Below are positions 1,804-37,354 of a DNA stretch of 37,354 bases, in pieces; position 1 is the stretch's first letter; each line of letters begins with the position of its first letter. The position numbers and the translations under genes were made by a program. The notes under the pieces are model-generated. The model did no database searches and had not been told where the DNA came from. It saw only the letters and a program-made list of their open reading frames with translations. The DNA is from Stramenopiles sp. TOSAG23-6. Lineage: Eukaryota. The stretch spans positions 1 through 37,354 of the forward strand of contig LT635940.1 in assembly GCA_900128565.1 (NCBI GenBank). The letters run 5' to 3'.

Positions 1804-1861
1804 AACATATTTAATACAGACGAATTTGAAATAGATTATATCTAGTTTAGTAAGATGTATT

Positions 1862-4427: not shown

Positions 4428-4480
4428 ATTCTAAAACAGTTTAACCAAATAAAAAAATATACATCATATATATATATATA

Positions 4481-14016: not shown

Positions 14017-15846
14017 ATGAGCTACATACCCCCACATTTAAGAAATAAGTCCAAAGGTGGCGATGTATCTAGAAAAAGTGATAATTTAATGCGTGATGAC
14101 CGCCCTCAGCGAGATGACAGACGTGGTGGTGGTAGCTATCGTGACGATCGTCGCGATGACAGACGTGGAGGTCGTGATAATGGTGGTGGTCGTTATGGTG
14201 GCAAAGCGGGTGGTAATTCTCGCTGGAAAGATTTCGATGCTCCAACTCCTCAACGATATGGAGATAGTCGACGTGGTAGACGTGGATCTGGTCCTTGGAG
14301 TGGAGATACTCGTCCTGACAAGCGTTTGGAAAGTGAACTTTACAAAGGCTGCCTTAACAAGACAGGTATCAATTTTGACAAATACGATGATATTCCAGTT
14401 GAAACAAGTGGAGAGAATATTCCTACAGAAATTAAGGAGTTCGCTGAAGGAAATTTACCTGAACAAATGCTTACCAATTGTGCCCTTGCTGGTTTTGAAA
14501 GACCGACTCCTGTACAAAAATATTCAATTCCAATCGGCGCAGCTGGTCGTGATTTAATGGCTTGTGCTCAAACTGGTTCAGGTAAAACTGGTGGTTTTCT
14601 TTTCCCTGTTATTGCTGAGATGTTGAAGAACGGTCCTCGTGAAATTAATGACACTGCACCAAATACTAGCCGCCGTCGTAAGATTTATCCTGCATGTCTT
14701 ATCCTGGCACCAACACGTGAACTTGCTTCTCAGATTTACGAAGAAGCTCGAAAGTTCGTGTATTGTACTGGAATTGCAGCAGCGGTTGTATATGGTGGTG
14801 CTCGTGTAAGCGATCAACTTCGTCAACTTGAAAGATGTGGTTGTGACTTACTTGTAGCAACTCCTGGACGTCTCGTCGATCTCATTGAACGTGGTCGTAT
14901 ATCTTTAGCAGGTATTTCGTACTTGATTTTAGATGAAGCAGATCGTATGCTTGATATGGGATTCGAGCCACAGATTCGACGCATTGTTCAGGAAGAAGAC
15001 ATGCCAACAGACAACCGTCAAAGCTTTATGTTTTCTGCAACGTTCCCGCGAGAAATTCAGAGACTTGCAGGTGATTTTATGACTAATTATATTTTTTTGG
15101 CTGTAGGACGTGTTGGATCTGCAGCTAAAGACATTGTACAACGTGTAGAATATGTAGAGGAGAATGACAAAGAAGATTTTATTCTTCGCTTTTTAAGTAC
15201 TCTGGATGAAGGACAATTGACTCTTATCTTTGTTGCTACAAAACGATGTGCCGACTTTCTTGAAGAAATGCTCTGTCGTCAAGGACTTCCTGCTACATCA
15301 ATACATGGAGACCGAACTCAGCAAGAGCGAGAAGATGCCTTGTATGATTTCAAAAGTGGTCGCCGTCCTGTCCTCGTTGGTACTGATGTTGCTTCTCGTG
15401 GGCTTGATATTCCAAATGTATCATATGTAATTAATTTTGACATGTCAAGTAGCATAGATGACTATGTCCATCGTATTGGACGCACTGGTCGTGCTGGTAA
15501 TGTAGGAAATGCTATAACCTTGATAAATCGCAAAAACAGAAACGTTGCACGAGATTTATACGACTTACTTATGGAAAATGAACAAGACGTCCCAACTTGG
15601 CTTGAAGACATGTCTCGTAGTGGTTATAGCCGTGGTGGTGGTCGCCGTGGTGGTAGCAGTAGATTTGGAGGTCGAGACATTCGCCGGAAAGGTGGCGGTG
15701 GCGGCGGCGGTGGTGGCGGCGGTGGTGGCTACCGTGGTGGTGGTGGTGGTGGAAACCGTTCTTATTCAAGAGGTAATGGTGGATCCGCGAATTTTCACTC
15801 ACGAGCTGATCGTTCAGGAGGATCAAATGATAACTCTGCCTGGTAA
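14017..15846 (+). CDS. DDX3: DEAD-box RNA helicase DDX3/Ded1
   Basis: [71 protein letters not shown]-rich tail ending in W. Confidence 0.95.
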
Positions 15847-19100: not shown

Positions 19101-19518
19101 ATAGTGGCCATTGATCAACTTCAAAAAGCGATCGATGTCGGTCGTTGTCGTCTCCAGGGTCATTCAGACGAACATTTGAAAGCGGTCCAAAAAATAAATT
19201 CACGTTGANGTATATGAATTCTTCTTTGTTTGGAACACTATAACTGCAGCAACCAGTAAATCTATGCATCATTTCTCGAAAACGTTCGTAATCAGCAATC
19301 GTCATTAAGTTGAAGGCAGCCCTTAGCGCTGGTCTAGGAATGAAATGATGCGCACTTTGTTCATCATCACTAAGTTTAGGTATTTTCAATTGGGACCCAT
19401 TTTGCCTTGGAGTAAACCAGTTCCCTTGGGCTTCAGGTGGAGCTGCTAATGCAGCAGATGAGCATGTAAAAACAGTAAACAGAGTCAGCACTAGTATTAA
19501 GTAATGTATGTCGACCAT
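16165..19518 (-). CDS. Large orphan protein (~1117 aa) with a probable signal peptide and a Lys-rich C-terminal tail
   Basis: Long uninterrupted ORF; hydrophobic MVDIHYLILVLTLFTVFTCSSAALA from ATG 19518; no domain recognised. Confidence 0.7.
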   Translation of the reverse strand: MVDIHYLILVLTLFTVFTCSSAALAAPPEAQGNWFTPRQNGSQLKIPKLSDDEQSAHHFIPRPALRAAFNLMTIADYERFREMMHRFTGCCSYSVPNKEEFIYXNVNLFFGPLSNVRLNDPGDDNDRHRSLFEVDQWPLSIAQKYPSAIEKMNKLWLAVKSALVIHLSCSVGKGNALWTSPYKENLTDFPQMKILFSSLEDALDEWQKVGVTIQFNRETAFEYNSDDWVCSESKDKSILWTLFELEAQSSSTSRKHSCGVLAKITEAPAHELKAAHNEKSVAGDREGSGNVFVTRKQYKGESNGAYIWRNESPHKFHYPAGYYLQESSITNGIAIRAKEETLMEAFETWHTLFRYKKKKSSLAAKFLRQKLSSIGEDFSDSALLRATQELHVVIQKLIGSPIDQCNGSKISDVLLMPQRFTDEHITQIASDRREEDDTLPAGDDTPGDDTPLDDIHAEPAVPAVPASAVMVDSGYQIGEENTTWDLHIMEKMKERVYEYYNDYSKNLQDFFVLSAVTFDSRVIKRKESPIHGAILKWGEEHYLVWEETMINIFFAVEMMNYTLTKQREILNSFQSNPIDAGVNIEYKERYANAWKNDMMNLHDFEALFELTKAGTDMEXKNMFQILITDDVELKEFQDSIQKVLRSVHNCMQIMRDFIAFTRQMEYKWVTGSLEHQHIPNRIARNILAARHINTLISENEVEVLHSEKKTRQFRSIPPLDERKYLIKSEGFHVTSVFHYHLRENSDYDLKVQFNVDDDPYMAAAFSAIQSVKDAGYKETDPVYENTVLTLMAQILPLIINYMSELPKDIQPNLKFADKWVVDGEDHPCDRYFGIQLVFGKSEKPTLPTNKELRDPVYICYNKRIDESGDVLSLYKDFLKGYMSEHDRLIFLTGLGRHVTPSIARGQKVTLGVSDRDAFTFDTKDKLKQVTTQANTFLSKIMTEAGESLSKQHQKDLLDKIIKNYKLRVALERVRCGKFHGEIGSLVQIFQFLSSVPEEDLMKYKQDVEQARTDEQRLEYLLSNLKEASHEELESLLRRNPLAQLPRSARVNPRARGQQSAEVGPGKLGKRGKPLTNKEKRALKRGEELASLQGKPKDEPKVPQKGKKGKKRGKKKKK

Positions 19519-19791
19519 TCTATATATATACTCCAACAATAAAAGACGTCGAATGATATATTCCAAGGTTCTGTGTATAATTTGAAATTTAAAACCGTTC
19601 GTCGTCCGCCGATACGGTATTTTATTTAATCGCATCCAGGAGCTGAAGCAGCTCTGGCGCTAGTACCGGGTATCCAAAATATTATATATCCGTTACACGA
19701 CACTATGACGACCAACAGCCAGTCAATCTGCAGTCAATCTTCTTTTAAACAAGGTTTTTTTTTGTCTCAAGAATGTATGAGTTAATATAGA

Positions 19792-20520
19792 ATGCCAACA
19801 CTTCGACGAACCTCCCAGTCCAAAAAGCAGTATGGAGAAGAAAACATATTTGGCCAACCCCAAAGTCTCGTCGTGGGGCAAGATATTTGTGTTGCTACAG
19901 GTCTTCCCTTGCCTGCTGATGCTATTCCGGGAGAGGATTGGGGAGTTATGCAAAGCGACTGAACTGGAAGGTTGCGGTGCGCCTATCCATCAAACTGTTT
20001 AACGAAAGAAGGTAATTACGGTTGTTCGAACCCTTCTTTGGATATTTATGGATGCAGAATTCACAGGTCAAAACGTTTGGAGTCCAAGTCAAATGATTCA
20101 GAATATCCCAGCCTTCCATACAAAAATAGCAATAATCGATCACTAAGCACCCACGAGCTTCTTCTCCAAAGTGGGTGGCTTCCAAACGTTTCTCTTAACT
20201 CTCCAACAAAGAAACGTAAAAGTCAAGTAGAAATTCCAATGAGTCAGTACTATCGTACAGAATTATATAAAAAACTTATAGATACGAAAAAGTCACGATC
20301 TGGTAGGATAATTATTCCGTCTACAAAACAAATTAACAATTCTATTCAGCGGATTCAGCAAAACGCAATTCGAAAAAGAAAGAGGTTAGTTAAAAAGACT
20401 TTAAAAAAGAAAAAACCAAGTGTCATTGGGGTAAATAGATCCATCAGGCACCCTCCTTTTATAGAAAACTCAAAAAATAATAATAATAAACGCCACAGGA
20501 AGAAGAGAAAGTCTAAATAA
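19792..20520 (+). CDS. Hypothetical basic protein with one in-frame TGA at 19960-19962 (recoded gene or pseudogene)
   Basis: ATG 19792 opens 56 codons, then TGA, then the same frame stays open to TAA 20518-20520. Confidence 0.45.
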
Positions 20521-21064
20521 TTGGCTACATTCCGAGGATAAATTGATAAATTGATAGAGGTATTATTTTCGTTGATGTATGAGCGACAATCCTTTCAAAA
20601 AGAATCGTATTACATACTGAGAAATTGTAAGATATTTAAATTTTAATTTTGTCATGTATTATTACTTATTTTATTATTTCGTTGTCAATCTCTAGAAAAA
20701 ATCTAAATCAAGACATTATTTTTTGTTTTTTCCCTCCTCTCATTCATCCCTATCATTTTATCACCTTCCCCGTCGTCATATATCTAAAAGGTTAAACTAC
20801 AAAAGATTTTTTACTCACACGCACAGCTTTCATATACATTTAGTCAATGCTCATGCTGAACATGCAATAAACATGTAATAAATCATTCATATTCTATTCA
20901 ATTCGTTATTCCATTTCCTTTTGCGTTTAATCATACTAAATACAAAGTAATTGAAAAATAATTCACTAGATCAATACATAATAAATTTGAAACACCATGT
21001 GCACAAATACAGTCTATTAAACTAAACAAATTAATCCAAGAACTTTTAAATGTTCTATGTCATA

Positions 21065-23914
21065 TTAACGCCACGCACCACCAGTAGATGAAGTGCGTTC
21101 ACCTCGTCGATCATCTTTTCGGTCACGGCGATTATCTCGAATCCGTCTTTCATTAGTTTCGCGATTAGAAGAATTACGACGTTCCTCATCACGACCTTCA
21201 CGAGAGTCTCCAGGCGATGCTGCTGGTGAACGAGCTTTGCGTGCAGCAAGAACTCGCGCGCGACGCGAAGCACGCTCCTTCTGTTCCGGGGTTTGCTCTC
21301 TTGCAAGCATACTCGCAAAAGAAGCTTTAACGCCCCATGTGCCAGTATTATCATTTGTTGTTTCATTATTATTCGTATCGCCTGCAGGTTTAATAGTATT
21401 TGCAACGACATCGTCAGAAGCACTGACTGAAATCGTATTTTCATCTTTCGCGTTCTTCTTTTTCGGAGATTTTACCTTTGAAACTTCGCCTTTCAAATGT
21501 GTAAAAGCTTTTTTCTTCGCATCCAAATAAGCAGCACCACTCACTTTCGAATTAGAAGAAGTTTCAGTCGTCTGCGAAGGATCACTAGCGGCAATCGATC
21601 GTGTTTTTTCCCACCCTCTAGGAGCGCGAGTTGATTTTGTACCAGTCGTTGTAGAATCGGTCTTTGAACTTAATTTAATAGAAGTCGTCTCTTTTCCTCC
21701 TTTTACTCCAGAAGATTTACTTTTCTTCTTTTCTGCGGACTTAGAAACCTTTCTGGTGGGTACCGAAGTATTAAGTTCGGACGCATTTTTGGAGCTGGTA
21801 TTCTTCAATAACGCAGCTGCGTATCTGTAATTTATATGCGGATATTAAAATAGATTCAATCGTAAGAATATGTTTGTATAGTAAATAGAGGGAAACATAA
21901 ACAAATCATATATTGTTATTCTGTTGTAAAACACTAGTACAATAATTACACTTCTTCAGACATGAAGATAAAATTGCTTCGTTTCGGAAGAAAATTATAC
22001 AAGTATAATGTATAGCATAGTACATGGTCCCTATTCTCAAAAGATACCATCAAAGGACATCACTCCTTATCAAAATATCTCAGATAGCAGGAAATACAAT
22101 CTAGCTCTTTTTCCTTATAAGCAAAAGCAATGGTTATGTGCTTCGTTATTACACAAAAGAAAGAGCAGGGAAATACACAAATGTGATTCATATGATAATA
22201 TAATTGTTAAAATAAATTGTACTTACCCTCCCCAAGCATTACGAGCTTTGTTGTTACTTCCATTCTTCAATTCTACGCCATTCGATTTGTTCTTGTCACC
22301 TGATTTTGATGACGCATTGACATTTTGTGCTCCTCCTTCCATCATTGACGTCATCATCGATGTGTAATCTGAACTTTCAGCACGGTCAACTCGAATAGGC
22401 TTACCCTTCAAAACTGCTTCATTCACTTGATCCATTGACAATGTACGCTGTCGATTAAGATACTCAGAATGAGGTTTGTCCATGACGATGTCTTTCGCCT
22501 GTTCTTTTAACAAATCTTTCGAAAACGATTTCGGAGGCGTGATTTCAGATTGTGGCATTTTACGTACAATATTTAGTAAATCTTTATGCTGGTAACGCTG
22601 AAATTGTCTCTGATATCCAGATTCTACACCTTGAGATGGAAGTGATGGGAAATCTGTTGCAGAATTGACAGCTGGAGCAGGAATTACAGTTTTTTTTGCA
22701 GAATCTTTCTTGTCCTGAGATTTTTTCTGATTATTTCTTTGTTTATTCTTCCCTTGGCCTTGCTTGCTATCTTTGTTTCCATCATTATTGTTCTTCTTAG
22801 ACTTCTTTCCCTGTTTATTTTGTTGCTTTACTTGCTGCTGATTGTGTTGCTTAGGTCGATTGCCGTGCTTATTTTGTCGCGAGTTTGGAAGTGCTCGACC
22901 ATTCGATTGGCCAGCAAAGTGTCCATTGTTTCCACCTCTTTGCTGTCGATGCTGTTGATTAAACGCGGGCTTTTGTTGGCCTTGTCCATTGTATTGACGC
23001 TGCTGAAAACGACCTGGAGGGCCTCCAAACTGTCGTTGCTGATTAGGATCAAAATGAACTCCTTGCTGTCTGAACATCATCATATTGTTCATTCCGACAG
23101 TGTTCCCATATGGACCACCATACATTTGACCTGGATAAAACATACCCATTGGAGCTATCATACCATACGGAGAGTAACCACGACCAGGAAATCCAGGCTG
23201 TTGTCTCACTATATTGTTCGCATCATTCTGAACTTTATCTCTGTTGTTCGAAGGAACAGCATCAGGTTGACCATTTGGAGAGTTATTACCATTTGACACA
23301 CCATTAGATTTATAAACGCTGCGAAGTAAGTTTTCACTCTTGAGACGCCCTTTAATCGCTTTGCCACCGATTTCTTTACCAGCTAACTTAGCTTGGAGTA
23401 GCGCATTTTTTGCACTTTCTTCGTCCTTCATGGTGACAAACCAAGTGTTACCCACGTCACTTCGGACTTCTTCAACAATACCGAATTCTGCGAATATTTG
23501 CTCAATTTCAACCTTTTCTGTGTTAGCCGGTACATCGCGCAATATGATTTTATTGCGCTTTGGCTTCGAAAAGGCTGGTTTTAGAGTTTGGCTTGCTTCA
23601 TCTAAAGTGACAATAGTCGAGTCTTTCACAGATTTGGCAATGAGAGCTACGTCGTTCGTTAACGCGCGCACTTTGCGGAATTGGGAAATCACGTAAATAG
23701 GAACTTGCATATCCGCATTCATCTGCGATACAAGGTGTGCATCGACGGACAAATTGGCACGCGAGAAATAGAATTCTACTTGTTTCTTTAGTGCAGCTAA
23801 CAGTGCAGCACCTTCCAACTTTGTGGTGGGTTGCGCGATGCCGTTTTTATCATAAGAATTTATTTGAGGCTGCTGCTCAAGTACAGCACCACCATCTTGT
23901 TGCTGCGGCTGCAT
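21065..23914 (-). CDS. La-related RNA-binding protein (LARP4-like); exons 23914-22227 and 21824-21065
   Basis: La motif LKKQVEFYFSRANL, adjacent RRM (IILRDVP...NTWFVTM), Q/N-rich region, DFPSL; the intron joins AWGG-YAAALLKN in frame. Confidence 0.85.
21825..22226 (-). other. Canonical GT-AG intron (402 nt)
   Basis: GTAAGT...TTACAG on the minus strand; restores frame between ORFs 22223..23929 and 21065..21808. Confidence 0.85.
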
Positions 23915-24262
23915 TGCAAAACTATTCAACGTTGCCGGTGGTTATTGCGTTCTTTCTGCCAAGCGCCCAGCTGCTTGGTCGTATCGCGAGTACACGAGGT
24001 GTGTATGTACACAAAAGAAGAGACAACAACAACCACCGCAACAACATCGTGGTCAGATTGTCGTGTTTTCGAACGCGCACTGAATAATTTCTACATTACC
24101 GGGTTCCAATATGGAACAAACCTGCTCGTTGTGTTTTTAATTTTGTTTTTATTTATTTTATTTCTTTTGAAAATGTTTTCATTTCATTAAATTTTAAATA
24201 ATTTCATATTATAAAACCGAGTATGAAAAATAGAGTCACAATTCCATTGAGTAATCATTCTT

Positions 24263-25565
24263 TTATTTTTCTAGTAATTCTTTTGAAAACATAGCGTTCT
24301 GTTTATCATCATTCGCAGTTGCCACTTGGGAACAATCTCCAATGATATAGTTCAGTTTTTTTTTTGATTCTACAGCAATCGGATGGTCAAAAATACAAAT
24401 AGGTAACTGATAAGTATCATTGTAAAAATACTTTCGTTTTACACCTTTCCAAACCTTTTTATCCTGGACTTCAGCAATTGGACAGGGTATATAAGTGGTA
24501 GTAAAACCAAGAGCATCAAGCTCCTGTTGAGCTATTTGAGCGTACACATGTATTTTGGAAAAATATTTCAATTGTTTTTTCGTTAGGTACAAAATTTCGT
24601 ACGAAAAAAAAAATCGATTTTTTTGTTAAAAAAAAAATAAAACATCCACCATGAAAAATAATGTTATCTGGACAAAGTCCATTAAAAAATGAATAACATC
24701 CACCAGGTCTTAAAATCCTAGGCAATTTATGGTGAAACTCTGATTGCTCCCCATAATTCTCTCCATATGTATCAAAATATATACCATCAAAACTTCTATT
24801 ATCAATTTTTTCCATCATATCCTGCCAACGACCATGTAAAATCGTCACTCCTGGTTTCTTATCCCAACCCTCTTTTAACATATAAGCATAGACTTGAGGA
24901 TGGGCTTCAATGATTGTGTGACTACGTGGCTTGCGATCCTGAATATAATTATCAATTATTCCCATTCCAAAACCTACATTTAAAACATCTGCTCCTCGTT
25001 TTTGTTCCCGATTTTTACCAAGGCTAGTGATAACGTCAGCAGAAGCCTCCATCAATGGGCTTTCCCAAGACATCATAACACCGTCTTTGTCCGAGTCTAA
25101 TAGTTGTTTTCCGTCCTCAGTATATTTTACATCTCGTTTAAGATAATCATTGCTATACTTGTTTGGTTCCGCCTTTAAGGTCTCTTTAGAAGTAGACTCG
25201 TTCGTGTGCTCACCAGGTCTGGTACTCATGGAACTTTTTTTCTTCAAGCACGCTAATAAAAGCTCAGAAGTTACCCCAGCATTAACGATACGATCGACAC
25301 ATTTTTGATGTCCAGCTTCTAATGCATAATCACCAGCACATTTATACTGGCGGTCCACTGCGTTCCATGGAGCACCTCTATAGAGCAACTCATTCATAAC
25401 CTCCAAATGACCATGTTGAGCTGCAGCCATTAAAACTGAGGTACCCGTTTCACTTCGCTGATAAAATTGCTCGGCTCCGTCCTTCAGTAACTGACGAACT
25501 AATTTAAAATTACCTGTTACAGCTGCATCCCATAACTGCTCATTTAATACATTGATTTCTGTCAT
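24263..25565 (-). CDS. RMT2: Protein arginine N-methyltransferase RMT2 (ankyrin + GAMT-like domain), 400 aa; exons 25565-24648 and 24547-24263
   Basis: Ankyrin repeats, GAPWNAVD, VMMSWESPLM, VLNVGFGMGIID, HTIIEAHPQV, FDGIYFDTY, YSFFNGLCPDNIIFHG-VYAQI, WKGVKRKYF. Confidence 0.9.
24548..24647 (-). mobile_element. Introner-like non-canonical intron, copy 3 (100 nt, GG...AT)
   Basis: ggt|GGATGTTTTATTT...TTTCGTACGAAATTTTGTACCTAAC...TTTTCCAAAATACAT|gtg; nearly identical to 30181-30279; removal restores the RMT2 frame. Confidence 0.9.
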
Positions 25566-25924
25566 GATATACTATTAAATTTCTTCTTCTACTATCGTAG
25601 TTATAGTACCTATACGTAGTACAGTTGTGGCAAAAAAAGACGCTTGAAAAGAAATTTCATGAGACTGGCTCCAAAATATTAGCTAGGGTTGGGGGTTATA
25701 TTAGCTACTATGGTATACCGTAGTCAGAAAGAAAACTCGAACAAACACGAAAAATCAACGCGCTGCAACAACAACAACAATTTCATATATCCTATTTGGT
25801 ATAATAGTTTTACTTTCGGCTCTCATCTAAGTTGATTAATATATTATATAATAAAGTGAATGTAACAATTTCTTAGGTTCATGAAAATTCATGGAACACG
25901 TAACAAAATACTTGAAGTGTTACA

Positions 25925-25963
25925 ATTTTTTTAATGGATTTTTTTAATGGATTTTTTTAATGG
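25925..25963 (+). repeat. 13-bp tandem repeat x3 (ATTTTTTTAATGG)
   Basis: Seen directly, just downstream of the transporter stop codon. Confidence 0.8.
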
Positions 25964-26006
25964 AATGAAAGAAAAAAAGTTAATGAAAAAATTGTAATAG
26001 TCCATA

Positions 26007-27374
26007 TCAAGATCCCTTCACTTCCTTATTTGCACCATACGCAAAAATTAGAAGTCCAGTACATACAACGGACAATCCACCCCAACAGTAGATTGGAGAA
26101 ATTCCAGCCTCACCTTTCCCTCCCATAATCCATGGAATTGACAGAAAAAAGTTTTGTAGGGGTAGTGAAAATGCACTCGTTAAAAAACTAATGAGAGCTC
26201 CGTTACCACCAGTAATACCTGCATGTGTACCATAATTCACTAATATCAAAGCACCAACGATAAACGCAGCACCTAAAGGTGAAAATTGTAATACAAGTGC
26301 AAGTGATTGCTGACAATGCACATTTTTTGATGAGAACAGACACTTTGCTCCTTTACTATAGTCATTAGAAAAATGTTCTTGAAGACCAATGAATCCGCTA
26401 TTTGTTAGCACATATGTACTCTCTACAGCAATATTGACAGGTACTGATACACTATTCACTAAAGCAACAAGTAACGAAATCCGCATAAGAACTCCTGGAA
26501 CACTTCGCCTAGCTTCTTGTTCAGCCCGGCGACGTAAACGTTGACTACGAGCTACAGCTCTACTCGAATCAACAGTTTCATCCATTAAACCATCGCTTTC
26601 TACATCGCTAGTATCTAAATTACGCACTGATGCAACCACTGCCTCCGCAGTTACCCAAGCTGAACTAGTAGAAGCTGCTAAATTAGCTTCTGCATCATCA
26701 ATCTCTGCTGCAATACTTTCTTTTTCAAATGCAGATTCCACCAAGACAAAAAATAAAGCTTGTGGAATGGTACTCAAAATGTAAACAATTACCCATATGA
26801 TATCAATATGATTTAATGAATTCAACTGCGAAGAAGAAAACACAGAAACTGCAACACCAACACAAATGATGAATGGCCCTAATAGCATCATTTTTGTATA
26901 GTACTCAGAAGGGCATCCTCGAATAATCCACGCAATCAATAAAGTAAAAGGTATAACAGATTGACCTGCGACAACAAGTATATTTGAAAATTCGTTATCT
27001 AACCGATCAATACAAAGAATCATCAGAGTATTTTGTAATCCATTCAAACCACCAAGTAAAAGTATTGTTTTCCTATGAAGTAGAAGTCCCCTAGTTGCAT
27101 GTAATGCGGATATTTTTAAGGACGTTGCTTTTGATATACGGTAGTGCACAAAAGGAATTAATAAAAATGCAAATACGAGGCACACCAGAATAATTGACAC
27201 TGTATTAAGAGTGTTGACAAAGAATGGAAATGACTTCAAAGCATGAAGCTCCTTGTACATCCAAATAGTACTAATAACGGAAACAATTACATATAAGACA
27301 GACGAAACTATGAGAGCAAAGTTTCCAGACGGTACCGAATTTGATGAAGAGTTTCCTAGCAAAGAAGAATGCAT
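26007..27374 (-). CDS. CRT-like (drug/metabolite superfamily) membrane transporter
   Basis: About 10 hydrophobic segments; GQSVIPFTLL, STIPQAL...ESAF, GAKCLF, SAFSLPLQNFFLSIPW resemble the CRT/CLT family. Confidence 0.7.
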   Translation of the reverse strand: MHSSLLGNSSSNSVPSGNFALIVSSVLYVIVSVISTIWMYKELHALKSFPFFVNTLNTVSIILVCLVFAFLLIPFVHYRISKATSLKISALHATRGLLLHRKTILLLGGLNGLQNTLMILCIDRLDNEFSNILVVAGQSVIPFTLLIAWIIRGCPSEYYTKMMLLGPFIICVGVAVSVFSSSQLNSLNHIDIIWVIVYILSTIPQALFFVLVESAFEKESIAAEIDDAEANLAASTSSAWVTAEAVVASVRNLDTSDVESDGLMDETVDSSRAVARSQRLRRRAEQEARRSVPGVLMRISLLVALVNSVSVPVNIAVESTYVLTNSGFIGLQEHFSNDYSKGAKCLFSSKNVHCQQSLALVLQFSPLGAAFIVGALILVNYGTHAGITGGNGALISFLTSAFSLPLQNFFLSIPWIMGGKGEAGISPIYCWGGLSVVCTGLLIFAYGANKEVKGS

Positions 27375-27970
27375 TGTATATCTGTGAAAATATCTATGAA
27401 GAAGAAGTCATACTTTAAAATTGAGCACGAAGTCGAAGTCGCAAAGTGCAAAAACCGACTTTTGTTTTGACCGGGGCTTTTGTGTTGACCTTTCGTTTTT
27501 TTTATTTGAAAATCATGTGTTTTTTTTCTTACATTAAAATTTGTCGAGAAAAGCGAGAAAAGATTATAAAATGTCAAAATTATAGAAAAAAGTACTTGTA
27601 TAATATTGCATATAGCCAATACTGTAACTTTAGTTCAAGCATAATAAAAACCACTGGCAACAATACAGGAAATTGCTTTCGATTAATTATGGAATGTTCT
27701 ATTGAAAAGGTAAAAATTTTTGTGTGTTGATTGATAAAAGATTTAAATAAATGTGATTATTATGTTTGGTTATATTTATATAGATTTTTGTAAAAGAAAT
27801 GTTGTTCTATTAAAAACACCTATCAATCATGTAAAGCATTGATTAAAACCTATGGCTCATGAAAGGTGTGTGTGTTTTTAACCAAACAGTAGACTCAAAG
27901 TGGGGACTCTCATCTCAGCGCAAGTAAAACACGACTTGTCACGAAATCCGACGTTTTCACTCACCTGGAG

Positions 27971-28651
27971 TTAGACTTTATATTCCGTACTCGCGAGCCA
28001 AGATTGATACAAGTCCTTATCATCCCTATAATTTTTAGGAGCCTTAGGATCTTCTTCGAGCTGCTGCTGTTGTCTGGCAAAATCCCGCAGTTGTTTGAAA
28101 GACAATGTACGCGCTGTCTTTTCTGCTACGTCTGCATTGTCGCCAAGTTTGTTCAATCCGAATTGAGTAGCTAGGCGTTGTCGTGCTTGTAGCATTTTCA
28201 TGTGAGTTACCAATTCTTCTTCCAAAGAGATCCTCCGTCGGCTTAGCTGATCGCTAAAACGTTCATTTTCAATACCCCACCCTTCTACGAGAACCCTCAT
28301 CATGGCACTAAGTAGTGGCTGGAATTCCAATCGAACACGTTCAATAAGAGTTGTTGGCGCAAGTGCCGCATTTTCAAGAGGTTTGGGCATACGACCGAAC
28401 TGTTCAAGGTCCGAAGGGCTAACGGGATAACGCATAAGACCATGCCGTTCATTTCCTGGTATTTTCCGAACAGCAACAAAACCGTCCACTTCGTCGTCCG
28501 TTGGTTGCACCTCCGGTTCTGGAGCCAAAGCGCCGCCTCCCAATCCAAGGCTTTCCTGTAATCCCCGGATGTATTTCATGGCTGATACGTTATTGAAACA
28601 TGTTACAAGCATACTGATCATGATAAGTGTTACTGATTTCATATTTGTCAT
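27971..28651 (-). CDS. Hypothetical protein with a probable signal peptide
   Basis: 226 aa ORF with a hydrophobic N-terminus (SVTLIMISMLVTCFNNVSA). Confidence 0.65.
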   Translation of the reverse strand: MTNMKSVTLIMISMLVTCFNNVSAMKYIRGLQESLGLGGGALAPEPEVQPTDDEVDGFVAVRKIPGNERHGLMRYPVSPSDLEQFGRMPKPLENAALAPTTLIERVRLEFQPLLSAMMRVLVEGWGIENERFSDQLSRRRISLEEELVTHMKMLQARQRLATQFGLNKLGDNADVAEKTARTLSFKQLRDFARQQQQLEEDPKAPKNYRDDKDLYQSWLASTEYKV

Positions 28652-28911
28652 TGTGGATATTGTTAAAAATGCCGTAAAATGTTTCCACTTGTAGATACCT
28701 TAACTCATGAACTGGACACGAACANACACCAATAAATACAAAACTTTAAACGGTTCAGTCAATTGTTACCCGGTACCCACGAAATCGTGTCAAAAGAAAA
28801 CAAAAATTCAGCGTGACGAAACCTCGTGTAGACTGTGGCTTACTTACAACACTTTCACCTTTCCATTACCTTTTTCTCAAGGTGGTAAAGTGAATTGCCG
28901 TCGTGCTTAGA

Positions 28912-31900
28912 ATGACAAATACCCCTCGTGGTACTCAGGCGCGTTTTGGTAGTAGTGGCTATGAAAAGTCATTATACGGGCGAAAAAACTATTCTTTTGG
29001 AGACCAGAAGAAAAAGCTCGTCTATCATGAGGACCGACCTTCACGAATAGCGTGTGTGAAATTTGGTTTGCTGTCTGGTCTAGAAATGGCGCGTATGTCT
29101 GAGATGCATGTATGTTCGAGCGAGCTTTATCAGCTTTCAACTCGTGAGCCCAGCCGTAATGGTTGCATAGATAGACGTCTAGGTGTCTCTGATAAGCGAA
29201 GTAAGTGTGAAACATGCGGTAAAAATTTAGCAGATTGCATTGGTCACTTTGGTCACATACAGCTCGCTCTCCCAGTGTTTCATATAGGATATTTTAACAC
29301 CATTATCAAAGTGCTTCAAAACATATGCAAAACTTGCTCTCGTACGCTCCTCGATGATAAAGAAAGAACATCATATCTTGCTCAAATGAGATCAAAATCC
29401 ACACATGTTTTAAGAAAACAACAAATAATTAAAAAGATCACAGCTCGATGTCGTCGTGTAACTCGGTGTCCTCACTGTGGTGCAATCAACGGCCCTGTAA
29501 AAAAGATAGCAGGTGCTCGTGGATTACGTGTTATTCATGAAATATTTAAAGTTAAGCAAGCTGTAGAACTAAAGCAGGAGTTTCGTGAAGAATTCGAGGA
29601 GGCTTGTCAAGCGAATCCAGAAATTGAACAACATATTAACAAAGCTCAACATGATCTTGACCCTGCGTATGTATATAACTTATTCAAAACCATTAAAGAC
29701 CACGAATTGGATCTATTTTGGTTGTCTCCTGAACTATCTAGACCAGAGAATTTATTACTCACACATATTTTAGTGCCCCCCGTGTGTATAAGACCTTCCG
29801 TCCAGATGATGGCTGGTGCATCCAATGAAGATGATTTGACCATGGCTTTGAGAGGTATAATAGAAGCTAATCAAGAACTTCAGTTTCATTTAGAAAAAGG
29901 TGCTGCAACAAAACATGTTGTTGAAGCGTGGGACCATTTATCTATGCAAACAGCCCAATATATTAACGGGGCATTACCCGGTTTACCTCCTGCTGTACGA
30001 AAAAGTATAAAACCTATCCGAGGCCTGTGCCAAAGACTCAAAGGTAAACAAGGCCGTTTTCGAGGCAATCTTTCTGGTAAACGAGTAGATTTTTCTGGTC
30101 GAACAGTCATTTCTCCTGATCCTAATTTGCAAATTGACCAAGTAGCCATTCCAAGGCGTGTAGCGATTCGATTGACCTATGTATGTTTTATTTTTTTTTT
30201 AACAAAAAAATCGAGTTTTTTTTTCGTACGAAATTTTGTACCTAACGTTTTTTTTTTGAAATATTTTTCCAAAATACATCCAGAACGAGTCAATAATCGA
30301 AATATTAAAAAAATGAGAGCTGCCGTTCTAAATGGTGAACTTAACTGGCCTGGTGCAAATTTTGTAAGAAAGAAAGGCAAACGTCCAATATCATTGTTGT
30401 ATGCAGATAAAAAGCGAACTGCTAAAGATCTTAAAATTGGTGATATTGTTGAACGTCATTTAATTGATGGTGATGTAGTTTTGTTTAATCGCCAACCTTC
30501 CCTTCATAAGATGTCAATTATGTCTCATTGTGTAAAGGTAATGCCATGGAGAACTTTTCGATTTAATGAATGTGTATGCTCTCCATATAATGCCGATTTT
30601 GATGGTGATGAGATGAATATTCATGTGCGTTTTTATCATTCATTCCAAATTTAAATGTTTTTTTTTCATAGATAATTTTGTACCTAACAAATTTGAAATT
30701 TTTGAAATATTTTTTATTACACATGTTCCACAAACTGAAGAAGCGCGTGCTGAAGCATTTACTCTGATGAATGTGAAAAGAAATTTAATTACACCTAAAA
30801 ATGGTGAGCCTCTAGTAACGGCAACACAAGATTTTCTCACGGCGTCATTTTTAATGACTGCGCGTGACAATTTTCTTGATCGGGATGCGATGTGTCAAGC
30901 TTGTTCCCATATGCAAGACGCTGGCTTTCACGTTGTCTTACCTCCACCTACGATTGTTGCACCAGTTACATTATGGACGGGTAAACAATTATGGTCAGTT
31001 TTATTACGTGCGTGTATCGGAAAATCCAAAGAATTGAACATTATTGCCAGAGGCAAATGTTTTGTAAGTCCGAATGAACGCGTGGGGTATCAAGACTTGG
31101 ATAATTGTTTATGCCCAAAAGATGGTTGGGTAATTGTTCGTAATTGTGAAGTTTTATGTGGCAGACTAGGAAAGGGGATTTTAGGTGGGAAGAAACAAGG
31201 AATTATTTTCACTATTGTTCGTGATCATAGTGTTGAAGCTGCTGCAATGATGATGGTAATGATGACAAAATGTGTCACACGCTGGCTGACAGGTCACGGA
31301 TTTTCTATTGGAATCGATGACGTTTCACCAACACAGCAACTGACAAAGCGTAAAGCGAAAGTATTGGAAGAGAATTTTGAAAAATGTCGTGTTAAAATTG
31401 ATAAATACAAAGCAGGAACGCTGCAAATGAAGCCAGGTTGTAACATGGATGAGTCGCTTGAAGCTGATGTAAAAGGTATACTTAGTGCTGTTCGTGAAGA
31501 AATGGGTTCTATGTTGATGGCAACTCTGCCTAATTATAATTCACCTTTTATTATGGCTACATGTGGTTCTAAAGGATCTGCCTTAAATATATGTCAGATG
31601 GTTGCGTGTGTTGGTCAGCAGGTAGTAAATGGTGAACGTGCTCCTGAAGGTTTTGTTCAACGTACTTTACCGCATTTTGGTATTAATGCTCGCGAACCTG
31701 AGGCAAAAGGTTTTGTAGCTAGTTCATTTTATACCGGACTCGATGCAATGGAGTTTTTCTTTCATACAATGGGGGGTCGAGAAGGTCTTGTCGATACTGC
31801 AGTAAAGACAGCTGAAACAGGATATATGTATGTTTTATTTTTTTTTCAAATTCGATTTTTTTTTTTTGAAAATTTTGTACCTAACGAATTTTTTTCTGAA

Positions 31901-34003
31901 ATATTTTTCCAAAATACATGCAACGTCGTTTAATGAAAGCTTTAGAAGATTTATCTTTACAATACGATGGTACAGTGCGAAGCAGTACCAAACAAGTAGT
32001 GCAATTTACATATGGTGATGATGGTCTGAATGTTTGTTTCCATCATGAATTTTTTATCTAATTTTTTTCATACGAAATTTTGTACCTAACAAACATTTTG
32101 AATTTTTTTTAAATATTTTTTCACAACACATCCATCCTGTATGGAAGATAATGAACGACCTGTAGATTTGAATCGTTTATTACGAATTGTTAGTGCTGAG
32201 TTTTCCGTTGGGCAAAAGTTTTCTTTAAGTGGACCAGGGATGTCACCAGAACAAATTTCTGCATCAGCAGAGTCGTTTATTGCATCACCAAAATTAAATA
32301 TATTACCCCACATTCGTAAATTTGTGGAAGAAATTAGAGAATTTAGCAAAAATCTGTGTGATAAAGTGAACAAAGGTGTACTGTCCTGCGGTTTACAAAA
32401 TTTTAATAATAGTAAAAGTTCAAAGAAAAAGAGTAAATCAAAACAAACGAAACCATCGTGGGGCAGTTGGCCTACTGTGTCAAAAATAAGAGCCGATTGG
32501 CAGCACGAACTATCTGCATTTGAGGCATCATCAAAATGGCGCGCACAAGCTGCAGATAAAACAAAACAAGCTTGGATGGAAGAAGGATCTCGAATCTTTG
32601 AGAACGTACACGCGATTCATACGGAAGTATTAGATGAAGTATGGAAACGTGCATTAATTAAGTATACTATGGCTACAATGGAATCAGGTGAGGCAGTTGG
32701 TGCTGTTGCTGCTCAAAGTATTGGTGAACCTGGTACACAAATGACATTGAAGACATTTCATTTTGCTGGTGTTGCTAGTATGAATGTCACTTTAGGTGTT
32801 CCTCGTATTAAGGAAATAATCAATGCTACAAAAAATATATCAACCCCAATTATTACAGCAGAATTGCAATCTGATCAAAGTGAAATTGCTGCGAGAATTG
32901 TGAAAGCTCAAATTGAAAAAACTACTTTAGGTGAAGTATCAAAATCTATGAAGGAAGTGATTGGTCCTGGTTTGTATTGTATTGAAATTACTCTAGACAT
33001 GGAAGCGATCCGTAAATTGTATCTACAAGTGGATGCATTCTCTGTTTGTCAAGCAATTATAAATGATTCTAAACTAAAATTGAAAGCTCAACACTTAGAG
33101 CGTGAAGGTGATGACGTCATTCGTATATATACACCATCGGAAATTGTGAGGATGGCACGCGCAAAAACGCATGGTCCAAAGCCTCCTGTCAACGGTAATC
33201 GTAATAGTCAATATTTTAATAGTCAAATATTGAAAGAGCATTTACCAAGTGTCATAGTTCAAGGTATTAAAGATGTTACTCGTGCTGTTATTAACAAAAT
33301 TGATGCTACAGCAGGAAATCGAGCTCGTTATAATTTGCTTGTTGAAGGAAACAATATGCTTGATGTCTTAGGTACAGATGGTATAGCTGGTACAAAAACT
33401 ACAAGTAATCATATCATGGAAGTTGAAATTACTCTTGGTATCGAAGCGGCGCGAACAAAAATTATTCATGAAATTAAGTATACATACGGCAGTTATGGAA
33501 TCACCGTCGATGAACGTCATTTGATGCTTCTTGCAGATGTTATGACGTATAAAGGTGAAGTTCTTGGTATTACTCGATTTGGTATAGCAAAAATGAAAGA
33601 TAGTGTTCTAATGCTTGCATCTTTTGAAAAAACGAGTGATCATTTATTTGATGCAGCTGTACATGCGAGAGAAGATGAGATTGAAGGTGTATCAGAATGC
33701 ATAATCATGGGTATTCCAATGCCAGTCGGTACCGGCCTTGCCAAGTTAGTCCATAACCCAGAAAGGTGTGCGTTAGATAGTATGCCATACCCGGTAATGA
33801 GAGATGTTACACCATTAACTATTGGTGCTAGAAATCAGAAGTTATGTGCTTATAAAGCTAAAGAAGAGGAGTACCATAGAAATAGACGACCAGACTTATT
33901 ACTCAATATGGATAAAGATGATTTGATGTTGAACGCTCATCACAATGAATCGAAAAATATTAAAATTGAAAACACAATTGTAAAGGAAGAACCAGTACTA
34001 TAA
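28912..34003 (+). CDS. RPC1: DNA-directed RNA polymerase III largest subunit, 1566 aa; exons 28912-30180, 30280-30624, 30725-31827, 31920-32031, 32132-34003
   Basis: CETC...[105 protein letters not shown]; no heptad CTD. Exon lengths sum to 4701 nt, a multiple of 3. Confidence 0.95.
30181..30279 (+). mobile_element. Introner-like non-canonical intron, copy 4 (99 nt, GT...AT, in frame and stop-free)
   Basis: tat|GTATGTTTT...AAAATACAT|cca; splits the conserved LTY-PERV. Confidence 0.95.
30625..30724 (+). mobile_element. Introner-like non-canonical intron, copy 5 (100 nt, GT...AT)
   Basis: cat|GTGCGTTTT...TTTTGTACCTAAC...TTACACAT|gtt; splits [17 protein letters not shown]. Confidence 0.95.
31828..31919 (+). 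mobile_element. Introner-like non-canonical intron, copy 6 (92 nt, GT...AT)
   Basis: at|GTATGTTTT...AAAATACAT|g; splits the bridge helix [17 protein letters not shown]. Confidence 0.95.
32032..32131 (+). mobile_element. Introner-like non-canonical intron, copy 7 (100 nt, GT...AT)
   Basis: aat|GTTTGTTTCCATCATG...TTTTGTACCTAAC...TTCACAACACAT|cca; splits [15 protein letters not shown]. Confidence 0.95.
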
Positions 34004-34094
34004 TGTGTGCAATTATTTAATTATATTTATAAATGTACATCGAACGATAATGTGTGCAATTATTTAATTATATTTATAAATGTACATCGAACGA
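34001..34094 (+). repeat. Perfect 47-bp tandem duplication at the convergent ends of RPC1 and the methyltransferase
   Basis: TAATGTGTGCAATTATTTAATTATATTTATAAATGTACATCGAACGA at 34001-34047 and again at 34048-34094. Confidence 0.95.
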
Positions 34095-35000
34095 ATCGTC
34101 ATCACATGCATTTTTTACATGTTCAGGAGTAATCCAACCTAATAAGCTCTTCCCTTGTTTAAATTCCTCAGTGCGGCGTAAAATCGGGCTAATAATTTCA
34201 GGTGCATATATATCAAGTTCCTCGCACAAATCTGCAAATGCACAGCCTGAAAGAGAATATGGTATATTTGTTTGTACTCCTTCAGTGTCTTTTAAATCAT
34301 TTTTCTTTTTATAACCCCAAAATAGTAAATTTGGATTAATGGCTAATATCATTACTTTATCAAAAACTTCTAGATATCTATCCGTGACAATTTTCATCAT
34401 TTCCCGATTTGCAATGACATTGCACAAACATGATCCTCCAGGTTCAAGTACCGAATATGCTGCATACAGAGTTGTCATCTTCACCACACTTGCTGGTGGT
34501 AATTCAAGAGGAGCATTATCTATTGCGTTTTCTGCAGCTATATCGAGTATAATCAAATTATATCGGTGTCTTGAATGAACATGTCTATTCATTCTCTTCC
34601 AATCGCAACCAAAAGAGGTAGGAAAAGATGTTTTTGATTTTTTCGAACTTTCCGAACTCTTTGAAATTATATCAATTTCATTTTCTACAGCAGAGGCTGC
34701 ATCTTTCAAAAAGGAAACACCACATTGACAGATTACTTTAATTTGTGATCCAACAGCCATACCAAAAAAGTTGACAGCAGCATAAATGACTTCAGGCGAT
34801 AGATCTACAACATTTATTTGACAAAACGGAAAAGATGCCGCAATTGCATTCGGTACAGCCCCACCACCACATCCAAGAACAGCCACTCGTAATTGCTCTT
34901 TTTCTTCATACCTACAGGAATTATCTTTCGTCAATGCACCATGTTGTTCTAATAATGTCACGATACTAAGAGCAAATGCCTGGTTAATTTCGAATGGTGC
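34074..35000 (-). CDS. Class I SAM-dependent methyltransferase / spermidine-synthase-like domain (METTL13 C-terminal-like); terminal exon, own 5' exons not evident
   Basis: VAVLGCGGGAVP, VVDLSPEVIYAAVNFFG, YNLIILD, LEPGGSCLCNV; no in-frame ATG before the SAM-binding motif. Confidence 0.75.
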   Translation of the reverse strand, partial: APFEINQAFALSIVTLLEQHGALTKDNSCRYEEKEQLRVAVLGCGGGAVPNAIAASFPFCQINVVDLSPEVIYAAVNFFGMAVGSQIKVICQCGVSFLKDAASAVENEIDIISKSSESSKKSKTSFPTSFGCDWKRMNRHVHSRHRYNLIILDIAAENAIDNAPLELPPASVVKMTTLYAAYSVLEPGGSCLCNVIANREMMKIVTDRYLEVFDKVMILAINPNLLFWGYKKKNDLKDTEGVQTNIPYSLSGCAFADLCEELDIYAPEIISPILRRTEEFKQGKSLLGWITPEHVKNACDDDSFDVHL

Positions 35001-35090
35001 ATGTATTTTGGAAAAATATTTCAAAAAAAATCGTTAGGTACAAAATTTACTATAAAACAAAATTCGAATTTAAAAAAAAATAAAACATAC
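35001..35090 (-). mobile_element. Introner-like non-canonical intron, copy 8 (90 nt, GT...AT)
   Basis: agt|GTATGTTTTATTT...TTTTGTACCTAAC...TTTTCCAAAATACAT|gca. Confidence 0.9.
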
Positions 35091-36679
35091 ACTCATTTGG
35101 AAAATTCTCGTAATCAAACCATTGTCCCAATTCACAAAATTTGTATTGTGAAAAAATATTTTACATACGAAATTCGTTAGGTACAAAATTTCAATGAAAA
35201 AATATAAATTCGAAATTCATGATGAAAACATACTGTTTGTGTTCTTGTGGGTAATTATATGTACTCCATGACCCAGTGTATGTTGTTTTCGCAGACATTG
35301 CAGCAATCGCAGCGGATTTATGTATTGTGAAAAAATATTTCAAAAAAAAACGTTAGGTACGAAATTTCGTACGAAAAAAACCTTAAATAAGAAATTCATA
35401 TAAAACGTACATCATCTGCTACTTTCAGAATTCGATCTTTAATCGCAACGCTTCCTTCTACAAATAAAGGCATAATTGTAGATTTTAACCACTCACAGCA
35501 GGTACATGATGGTGCCATTTTGGCGTAAATATACCATTGCATGAAAGGGCCAAAGACGACGAAAATGACTAAACAATTTAAAAGCATTATAGGAGGCATC
35601 CACATCAAAACTTTACTACGATTATTGTTTGGATCATATACACGTTCAAGTTGTCCATGGAAATCTAGATTTGGGCGGAGTTCAAATTCAGGTTCGTATG
35701 GATTAGGAATCTCTTCGTTGACACCTTGACGAGGTAAATTCCATCGATGACAAATGACATGACAATATCTTGTCCAATATTGTTTTAGTAAAGGTCCCCA
35801 AACACACGTAATCAATATACCTGTTATAGTTAATAACATCACATAAGCATTCCAATGAAAAAGAGAAACCACCCATAGACATGCACCAGTAATTCCTATA
35901 GGTACTATAAGAATTGTGTAGAATTGCACAAATGCAAAGTATAAAGCTACACGTTCGCCAAAATGATTTCGGATTTCGTCAACAAGCCAATCCGCACGAG
36001 CCCGAGCAACAGATGGAAATAAAGTACAATTTTTATTCATATACATTTTATGTAGCCACTTATTCCAGATTTGATCTTGTAGCGGATACATTGCTTTTAT
36101 ACCCAATTCAGGGCAAGAGTGTGCTAAAATTTCAGATTCACTGCCGACAACTGTGCCTAGTGCACGGCGTATAATTCTATCAGTTAAACGCAATTCCTCA
36201 GCATGAGAAAATGTCTGATGTTCAACTTCACCCATTGAACTATCGGTATCTATAATTCCGTATTTAATACGTCTGGCGCGTTCTACTCGCCTTCTCTCGT
36301 GCCTCAAAAGATTATGATCATCAATGCGCCGTTTACCTTTTCGACCGGTAGCCGATAAAAGGACTGTCAGTGTGTGTGCTGTTTCAACAGTTTTTTCTAA
36401 GAGACCGATATGAATTCCAGCTCTACACATTGTTTGTAAGGTCAAAATATGTCGTTCGATAGTATCATGGTCGATATATATATGAGCATCCTGTCCATCT
36501 TTCTGTTTTAGTTTCGACTTTGGTACACAATCTAAAATTAGCGCTATACTATAGCGTAGCCTGTCTTTTGGTGAAGTATCTAAAATATCAAAAAGAGAAC
36601 CGCTGCCGATTTTGCCTACATCAGTTGTTGGTGGCTTCTTTTGTGAAGCCAAAGACATTCCACGCAAAATTTTTGGCAT
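35091..36679 (-). CDS. Anoctamin/TMEM16-like protein, N-terminal half only; exons 36679-35411, 35319-35234, 35140-35091
   Basis: YPLQD, VDEIRNHFGERVALYFAFVQFYT, TM1-TM2, WTRY...RWNL, TM3; the C-terminal TM bundle is absent. Confidence 0.75.
35141..35233 (-). mobile_element. Introner-like non-canonical intron, copy 9 (93 nt, GT...AA)
   Basis: ca|GTATGTTTTCATCATG...TTTTGTACCTAAC...TTCACAATACAA|a; removal reads HKQFCELGQW in frame. Confidence 0.85.
35320..35410 (-). mobile_element. Introner-like non-canonical intron, copy 10 (91 nt, GT...AT)
   Basis: gat|GTACGTTTTATATG...TTTCGTACGAAATTTCGTACCTAAC...TTCACAATACAT|aaa. Confidence 0.9.
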
Positions 36680-36993
36680 TTTAAATGTTCCAGATGAAAT
36701 TACGACATATTAGTTCATTCTTCGTGGTTGTTCTTTTGAATGCCCGGAACTTCAAGAGAGAATATAACTAATAGCTACTTGTTAACGTTACGTGTTAGCG
36801 TTACTATGTAGACTAGACGACATAGGTCGGACATAAAAAACCGTTTCATCGGTGTTTTTCTCGGTTTCGTATATTTTTTCTAAGTCACACACAAGTCATC
36901 ATAGTGCGTAAACCTACTATAGGCAAGGTGTCATTGATATATATATATATTCTATATACTTAAAATGGATTAGTTTTATGAATAAATCGAAAG

Positions 36994-37255
36994 ATGAGTA
37001 GACGTGGGCTAGAAAAAGATAGATTACCAGCAATTAGAAGAGGAGATCACCATCCCCGATCCCAAGCAACCAAAGAAGAATGGTCTCAGTTTCTACGGAA
37101 AAGGTACAACAGAAAAAGTACAAAGAATGGTGTTCGAAATGCATTAATGGACACCAATAGAACTACAGAGCAACTTCGTGTTCTTTCTATATGGCTGCGA
37201 GGAAGTAGTATTTGTCCAGATAGCGTCAGCGACAAAGCTATCTTGAAAGTTGCTT
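36994..37255 (+). CDS. First exon of a hypothetical protein (3'-partial)
   Basis: ATG-initiated ORF that runs into element copy 11. Confidence 0.55.
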
Positions 37256-37354
37256 GTACATTTTATATGAATTTCTAATTTATTTTATTTTTGGTTTTCA
37301 TACGAAATTTCGTACCTAACGATTTTTTTGTTGAAATATTTTTTCACAATACTT
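37256..37354 (+). mobile_element. Introner-like non-canonical intron, copy 11 (99 nt if complete, GT...TT), ending at the window edge
   Basis: tt|GTACATTTTATATG...TTCATACGAAATTTCGTACCTAAC...TTCACAATACTT. Confidence 0.85.

Follow-up and report, generated by a model that had tools for sequence, protein, structure and literature searches.

Introners are repeated introns, often resembling miniature inverted-repeat transposable elements (MITEs), that supply splice sites of their own or recruit them and do not alter the mRNA, and the parts of the literature cited here name Micromonas, Aureococcus, Symbiodinium, and Polarella among their hosts (Gozashti et al., 2022, PMC9860276; reviewed in PMC11282704). 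Two systems depart from the usual splice borders. In the tunicate Fritillaria borealis, transposon-derived introns have AG-AC or AG-AT borders, inverted termini, and border repeats (Henriet et al., 2019, as summarized in PMC11282704), and a modified major spliceosome with duplicated U2AF subunits is given as the explanation for recognition of their 3' sites in the sections cited (Soo et al., 2026, PMC13326754). In the marine protist Amoebophrya, as described in the cited part of the genome report, more than 60% of introns are non-canonical, no border dinucleotides dominate, and there is no U1 small nuclear RNA (snRNA) (Farhat et al., 2021, PMC7789003). Here we describe a family of short inserts in contig LT635940.1 (assembly GCA_900128565.1, deposited as Stramenopiles sp. 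TOSAG23-6), whose 37,354 nucleotides (nt) were analyzed in full and are called the window below. Four of these inserts interrupt the gene for RPC1, the largest subunit of RNA polymerase III. We think it probable that they are part of a family that resembles introners and MITEs and that the spliceosome removes it at a 3' site without AG.

Exact restoration of the RPC1 reading frame

The initial annotation had placed four inserts between positions 30181 and 32131, three of them shifting the frame, and these coordinates and lengths proved correct. In a register that runs from GT to AT the homologous inserts r1 to r4 measure 99, 100, 92, and 100 nt, with r1 as the only one in frame (Table 1). Concatenated by coordinates, the five exons amount to 4701 nt, or 1566 codons and a terminal stop, with no internal stop. 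For every exon the top match in PDB was yeast or human RPC1, which outscored RPB1 and RPA1, and the catalytic and bridge-helix motifs are present. The phmmer matches to the RPC1 chains 5fj8_A (yeast) and 7a6h_A (human) had E values of 1e-152 to 1e-107 per large exon, with chain coordinates contiguous across the junctions. Exons 1 and 2 meet at Y404|P405 of yeast RPC1 (5fj8_A) and exons 2 and 3 at H520|V521 of the RPC1 chains. Exon 3 ends at Y884 of these chains, the split codon corresponds to M885, and exon 4 starts at Q886. Exons 4 and 5 meet at N908|P909 of human RPC1 (7a6h_A). No residue is gained or lost at any of the four junctions relative to yeast and human RPC1, and the annotated proposal that removing GT...AT rebuilds each motif was thus borne out by the structures and by the open 1566-codon frame.

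Translated as it stands, r1 is free of stops and would add 33 residues as a pure insertion between yeast Y404 and P405. The r2 insert is bordered by a 5-nt direct repeat (CATGT), r3 splits the Met codon (AT|G) of the bridge-helix motif TAETGYMQRRL, and r4 interrupts YGDDGLN|P. The four inserts are 66–87% identical to one another, and the GC content of family copies is 17–23%, compared with 39% for the RPC1 exons.

None of the four inserts has an AG at its 3' end in any register. The first AG downstream ends 4, 16, 20, and 16 nt into the next exon for r1, r2, r3, and r4, respectively, and its use would shift the frame in each case. The frameshift argument made earlier for one insert therefore applies to all four, but the CCAG found 4 nt on follows r1 and not r4. 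The GT...AT borders named in that annotation fit exact restoration without being the only ones to do so: because the four inserts have a direct repeat of 2–5 nt at their borders, cuts at AT..AC and TG..CA yield the identical RPC1 mRNA in all four cases.

We compared positions 17400-37354 of the window with three RNA runs and one DNA run, the latter a 2024 seawater DNA metagenome that served as the independent comparison sample and contains 88% of the sampled words of the stretch. Differences to this metagenome were taken from the best-supported 40 of 109 over about 20 kb, a selection unrelated to codon position. Fourteen of them fall between 28900 and 33955, one before the RPC1 start codon and 13 in exons 1, 3, and 5. 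All 13 listed differences within the joined coding sequence (CDS) are synonymous, where 22% would be expected at random (binomial p = 2.7e-9). Purifying selection acts on the joined RPC1 frame, and the gene is functional.

The metagenome contigs also contain insert-exon junctions at 24548, 32131/32132, and 35001, so the inserts are not an artefact of a single assembly; the 3' junction of r4 is covered by one independent contig (32076-34029). The synonymous-only variation and the recurring junctions together set aside a pseudogene, in agreement with the initial annotation, and at least three frame-shifting inserts must then be removed exactly. RNA contigs on RPC1 comprised 151-nt pieces of exon 1 and a few pieces from relatives. 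Two poly(A)/oligo-dT libraries, each from a different study, yielded four such 151-nt contigs that agree with exon 1 at every base. This is a weak sign of RPC1 expression, as DNA can occur in RNA libraries.

For exon 5, diatoms, a streptophyte alga, and an oomycete are among the best relatives that carry a name (45–59% identity), and ciliates are not. The host, an uncultured marine protist, is probably a heterotrophic stramenopile. Several exon-sized fragments of other organisms found with exon 2 stop at ...NIHLP, which is a different intron position. At the 3' end of the gene, a 47-nt tandem duplication (33997-34090, plus strand, 98% identical) starts 7 bases (ACTATAA) before the end of the RPC1 CDS. 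Since it includes the last sense codon and TAA, the stop region and the start of the 3' untranslated region are present twice.

Family members, signals, and borders

The initial annotation had called the RPC1 inserts copies, and they do form a homologous family, but one that also interrupts four other genes of the window, which that annotation did not follow up. A family profile searched with nhmmer found 11 copies in the window (E values 7e-18 to 5e-9) and nothing else below E 0.1. The copies are 90–103 nt long and 54–93% identical in pairs (mean 72%). All 11 lie in sense orientation to the host open reading frame (ORF), which has a chance probability of 2^-11 if copies are independent and of 2^-5 if counted by gene. 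Other long ORFs of the window are uninterrupted, apart from one candidate intron described below.

An alignment of the 11 copies shows a common anatomy. Copies start with GTAYGTTT, continue through a T-rich variable middle to an ACCTAAC box, and close with a T-rich tail that terminates in GAAATATTTTTYCAMAATACAT; the usual 3' end is ...ACAT. The GT stands at the homologous first position in 10 of the 11 copies, and ACCTAAC, which lies within TTTYGTACCTAAC, is invariant. The distance from box to end is 33–42 nt in every copy, no copy has an AG in that interval, and the T content of the tract after the box is 29–61%. RNAalifold predicted no base pairs conserved across the copies, and a search of the window against Rfam returned no family and no snRNA gene.

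The borders of the copies carry short repeats. The base preceding the element equals its last base in all 11 copies, and two bases match in eight (AT in seven, TT in one). The termini are also inverted (GTAT...ATAC), over 4–6 nt. As a 1–2 nt direct repeat flanks each copy, cuts at GT..AT, TG..CA, and AT..AC give the same product in most copies, and we prefer the GT..AT register only because it keeps a classical donor. The ends track the flank in the two copies that are not flanked by AT, with CA..AA at 35233 and TT..TT at 37256. This is what target-site duplication would produce, although the border at 35233 is unsettled and the copy at 37256 ends on the last bases of the window.

Several copies have details that bear on their borders. 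In the copy at 24548-24650 the homologous donor position is occupied by GG, with the nearest GT located three bases upstream; the 5' border of this copy is uncertain, as 24650, 24647, and 24644 each keep the frame. The 3' border of the copy at 35140-35233 is 35141 or 35140. For the copies starting at 35090 and 35233 there are two frame-consistent border solutions, which neither hand alignment nor a profile of nine homologues (177.3 vs. 178.0 bits) separates. Excision of 35320-35410 leaves the frame open across the following 86-nt exon, and excision of the abutting pair at 4134-4322 extends the host frame by 34 codons to TAA. This pair would have to be removed either as one 189-nt unit or successively; judged from its sequence, the AT shared in the middle looks like the insertion of one copy into the AT border repeat of the other.

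Table 1. Coordinates of the RPC1 gene, its exons and inserts, and the other family copies in the window (1-based; all inserts in the GT..AT register where applicable).
Feature	Position	Strand	Remarks
RPC1 (largest subunit, RNA polymerase III)	28912-34003	+	Joined CDS; phmmer matches to PDB; synonymous differences
RPC1 exons	28912-30180, 30280-30624, 30725-31827, 31920-32031, 32132-34003	+	Stop included
Insert r1	30181-30279	+	99 nt; GTATGT...ATACAT; phase 0
Box of r1, TACCTAAC	30239-30246	+	
Insert r2	30625-30724	+	100 nt; GTGCGT...ACACAT; box 30681-30688
Insert r3	31828-31919	+	92 nt; GTATGT...ATACAT; box 31878-31885
Insert r4	32032-32131	+	100 nt; GTTTGT...ACACAT; box 32083-32090
Family copy, first of abutting pair	4134-4226	+	In unnamed 419-codon ORF (2877-4133); nhmmer E 5e-9
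Family copy, second of abutting pair	4227-4322	+	Joint ...ACAT|GTACG..., zero-length exon between; nhmmer E 1e-14
Family copy in ankyrin and methyltransferase gene	24548-24650	-	nhmmer E 2e-15
Family copy just upstream of SAM-methyltransferase exon	35001-35090	-	Preceded by GT, not AT; nhmmer E 1.5e-13
Family copy ending ...ATACAA(A)	35140-35233	-	Preceded by CA; nhmmer E 7.5e-15
Family copy at end of anoctamin-like ORF (35411-36709)	35320-35410	-	GTACGT...ATACAT; nhmmer E 7.5e-18
Family copy after 91-codon ORF (36982-37255)	37256-37354	+	Preceded by TT; ends ...ATACTT at last base of window; nhmmer E 3e-16

The element is very abundant in the sampled seawater. In the DNA metagenome, bins that bear copies had a summed contig depth of 175–9746, compared with 6–12 elsewhere, and were 20- to 1000-fold deeper than single-copy bins; these depths are not a copy number. 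Element bins were not deeper than exon bins (0–0.7) in the two poly(A)/oligo-dT runs; such a pattern would agree with loss of the inserts from mRNA, but 5 and 9 contigs amount to missing cover and are no evidence. The third RNA run, whose library is given as "other," showed an excess of element over single-copy sequence of several hundred-fold, as in DNA, and it probably contains DNA or much unspliced precursor.

Public sequence collections were also searched for the family. Pattern scans used a 15-base pattern on metagenome contigs (at least 118 loci) and a gapped pattern on genome contigs (118) and viral contigs (14). They gave chance matches only, and in none of the 250 loci did nhmmer report anything below E 0.003. 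One public protein of 283 amino acids, "GSMAST32.ASY1.ANO1.1708.1 assembled CDS," was found with the read-through peptide as query and contains three read-through copies. A Pfam search of this protein returned one LMF1_C stretch, which does not resolve the insert borders. The GSMAST32 label points to a heterotrophic marine stramenopile.

A candidate for an ordinary GT-AG intron lies at 580-695 (plus strand, 116 nt), where it would join the ORFs 2-579 and 696-1803 in frame to a 562-codon product; continuity of the frame is its only support. Its first 11 bases (GTACGTTTTCA) are identical to those of the copy at 4227, and the remainder does not match the family profile. The shared start suggests that a GTAYGT-like donor is probably the normal type of this organism. 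Alternatively, the region can be read as a 29-nt piece ending in ...ACACAT, after which the frame soon stops and a gene of its own lies downstream.

Other observations concern genes near the copies or elsewhere in the window. On the minus strand at 34074-36709 lies an anoctamin-like ORF whose match to the 460-position profile is confined to positions 1-141. Behind it come three family copies and two tiny exons, and then an S-adenosylmethionine (SAM)-methyltransferase exon in which the N-terminal 140 positions present in homologues are missing. The arrangement represents an odd fusion, a pair of genes whose ends contain elements, or an assembly misjoin at the repeated element. At 14110-14193 and 15619-15735 (plus strand), Arg/Gly-rich repeat blocks stand at both ends of a DEAD-box helicase ORF (14002-15846) and look like ordinary low-complexity RGG tails.

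Removal of the inserts

A donor and a CTAAC box are what the major spliceosome reads. Because all 11 copies are in sense orientation, carry GTAYGT, a CTAAC box, and a U-rich, AG-free tail, and share no conserved fold, removal at the RNA level is favored, and on these sequence features we side with the initial annotation, which held it likelier than excision from DNA. The reading we consider probable is that a short AT-rich element invaded many protein-coding genes and functions as a spliceosomal intron, or introner. Each copy would bring its own signals, namely the donor-like GTAYGT start, the branch-site-like ACCTAAC box, and the U-rich tract of 33–42 nt without AG. As DNA, the MITE-like element would insert at AT (or xT) and duplicate 1–2 nt of the target. 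Splicing, presumably by the major spliceosome, may start at the GT of the element itself and extend through the downstream copy of the repeat; as this removes the element together with one repeat copy, the original coding sequence would be restored exactly and the original message with it. After a normal branch site and U-tract, the acceptor would be recognized as a position or a motif (...YCAMAATAC+2) rather than as AG.

A stronger version of this scheme can be offered only tentatively. Nearly all introns of the lineage might be copies of one mobile element with a self-sufficient splicing cassette, and the spliceosome might cut at a fixed two bases past the terminal ...AC, without AG, and so remove the duplicated dinucleotide (AT, AA, or TT). 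If this fixed-distance reading is true, it would amount to a new acceptor rule in a protist with a classical GT donor, and it would make a transposon harmless at any coding site irrespective of its flanks.

Several points weigh against spliceosomal removal of a mobile element. A non-AG 3' end is not a normal substrate of the major spliceosome, and we know of no factor outside Fritillaria that reads such an acceptor. The candidate at 580-695 suggests that an AG-type intron probably coexists with the family in the same genome; if it is real, AG recognition is intact and a second rule for 3' sites is needed. The register is ambiguous, as the 22 ends of the 11 copies are fitted by GT..AT in 19 cases, by TG..CA in 20, and by AT..AC in 19, and homology does not pin the borders of four of the seven copies outside RPC1. 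Since the repeat is only 1–2 nt long and mostly AT, target-site duplication rests on the two co-varying cases at 35233 and 37256. Neither an autonomous element nor an empty site was seen, and scans of public contigs yielded no additional copies. Among the short pieces in the three RNA runs, no contig spans any insert junction.

An alternative assigns the inserts to the minor spliceosome, as U12-type introns of the AT-AC or a non-canonical subtype that multiplied in the lineage. Shifting the register leftward by two bases gives an AC end in all 11 copies and an AT start in eight, including the four in RPC1. The ACCTAAC box resembles the U12 branch consensus, and minor introns are permissive at the 3' end, with AT-AA and AT-AT among the variants accepted. 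The U12 consensus comprises the donor RTATCCTT and the branch site TCCTTAAC about 10–20 nt from the 3' end. The donor of the family is instead GTAYGTTT, of which GTATGTTT fits the U12 donor at six of eight positions and ATGTATGT, in the AT register, at fewer. The box lies well beyond the expected distance in every copy, and three of the 11 have no AT start. Expansions of minor introns have been reported in Physarum and, mostly as AT-AC introns, in the stramenopile Blastocystis, for which the cited part of the report gives 253 minor introns, 77% of them AT-AC, half in phase 0, and recently gained (PMC10639083). On balance we regard a U12 origin as unlikely.

Removal from RNA by a machinery other than the spliceosome, guided by the ends of the element as may be the case for euglenid nonconventional introns and Amoebophrya introners, seems improbable. 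It would account for borders that are not GT-AG, for a direct repeat that overlaps them, for the inverted termini, and for a 3' dinucleotide that apparently follows the flanking sequence (AT, AA, TT), as though distance from the element, and no dinucleotide, decided where the cut falls. The lack of any conserved pair in RNAalifold speaks against it, as does the fact that only four end bases can pair, without consistent co-variation. Moreover, the family has the U-rich tract and CTAAC box that are absent from euglenid nonconventional introns according to the section cited (PMC11282704).

We find it similarly hard, and marginally harder, to believe that the inserts are excised from DNA in the manner of the internal eliminated sequences of ciliates, with the 1–2 nt border repeat as a pointer of which one copy stays. 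Loss of the element and one repeat copy would restore the gene exactly, as for TA-bounded eliminated sequences, and the GTAT..ATAC termini are transposon-like. Yet such removal does not require a uniform sense orientation, and signals of the kind seen here (donor, branch-like box, and U-tract) belong to RNA. Read with the standard code the frame stays open, and ciliates are absent from the named best relatives. The independent metagenome contigs retain the insert-exon junctions listed above, and none of the 15 joints listed, out of 247, skips exactly one insert, although contigs drop rare forms.

It is very improbable that nothing is removed and that RPC1 is represented here by a pseudogene riddled with transposons, or by an assembly artefact, with an intact copy elsewhere: the analysis covered one contig of the genome and protein searches limited in length would miss an intact paralogue of 1566 amino acids, but all listed differences in the joined CDS are synonymous, its codons stay free of stops and frameshifts though the inserts have diverged, three junctions recur in an independent metagenome, four RNA contigs match exon 1, and no other protein among the listed matches exceeds 59% (exon 5) or 81% (exon 2, partial) identity.

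Consequences and comparison with known systems

If the inserts are spliced as proposed, they would provide a second example, in a protist and besides the tunicate Fritillaria, of an intron class cut at a non-AG 3' end. The combination of such an end with a normal-looking donor would allow the recognition of acceptors to be considered apart from that of donors. It would further indicate that a single element can restock a genome poor in introns, even at sites where an essential polymerase has its catalytic loop and its bridge helix. There is also a practical side, as gene callers restricted to GT-AG translate the elements as coding or break the gene, and one public protein already contains three copies. 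Through this error the protein sets of these uncultured marine grazers are likely corrupted at many loci. Surveys of introners that start from annotation are blind to non-AG families, and the frequency of such families may therefore be underestimated.

Our literature searches found no paper that joins GT-AT borders with introners, or introners with marine stramenopiles, and no such family among non-canonical introns of stramenopiles was described in a title or the start of an abstract. The single-cell genome paper on the group of organisms that the GSMAST32 label names does not mention unusual introns in the text examined (PMC5778133), and the word "intron" is absent from a later comparative paper (PMC8163842). 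As far as these searches reach, the family is not yet in print.

Like introners, the copies are short look-alike introns in many unrelated genes with a GC content lower than that of exons, and the hallmark of many similar copies in unrelated genes is seen here as 11 copies in five host genes within 37 kb. Short inverted termini and target-site duplications occur in some introner families, and some supply one or both splice sites themselves; in introners, splicing out the element with one copy of the duplication keeps the length of the mRNA. Two features differ. The catalogued introners, in the parts of the literature cited, are GY-AG with AG acceptors, whereas in the present family AG is missing from the end and its vicinity; the catalogued families are GY-AG because they were found among annotated introns. 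The flanking repeat is 1–2 nt here, compared with 3–8 nt in the introners of the cited section (PMC9860276).

As to U12-type introns, 8 of 11 copies can be placed in an AT..AC register, minor introns tolerate 3' ends other than AG, and Blastocystis, in the cited part of that report (PMC10639083), sets a precedent for recently gained introns of this type among stramenopiles. Neither the donor of our family nor its spacing between branch site and 3' end agrees with the U12 consensus. In euglenid nonconventional introns a stable pairing close to the ends draws the splice sites together and a polypyrimidine tract is lacking, whereas our copies have no conserved pairs and carry a T-rich tract after the box.

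The closest systems are the transposon-derived non-canonical introns of Fritillaria and Amoebophrya. With those of Fritillaria, on the published passages cited above, the family shares MITE-like introns, inverted termini, border repeats, and 3' ends in AC or AT, and few old canonical introns accompany them. Fritillaria introns mostly start with AG, in contrast to the classical GTAYGT here, and their host is a tunicate animal rather than a protist. Amoebophrya, within the same limits of the cited text, is like our probable host a marine protist, and has repeated introns that resemble MITEs, direct repeats (3–5 nt in Amoebophrya) that overlap the borders, and an ambiguous cut. Its introns have inverted repeats of 8–20 nt and a predicted hairpin that joins the exon ends, whereas the present inverted ends span 4–6 nt, form no conserved fold, and accompany a donor that looks compatible with U1. 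The family would work much as these two systems do. What sets it apart is the combination of a donor and branch box of classical type with a 3' end that is uniformly non-AG, inverted ends of only a few bases, and the absence of a hairpin.

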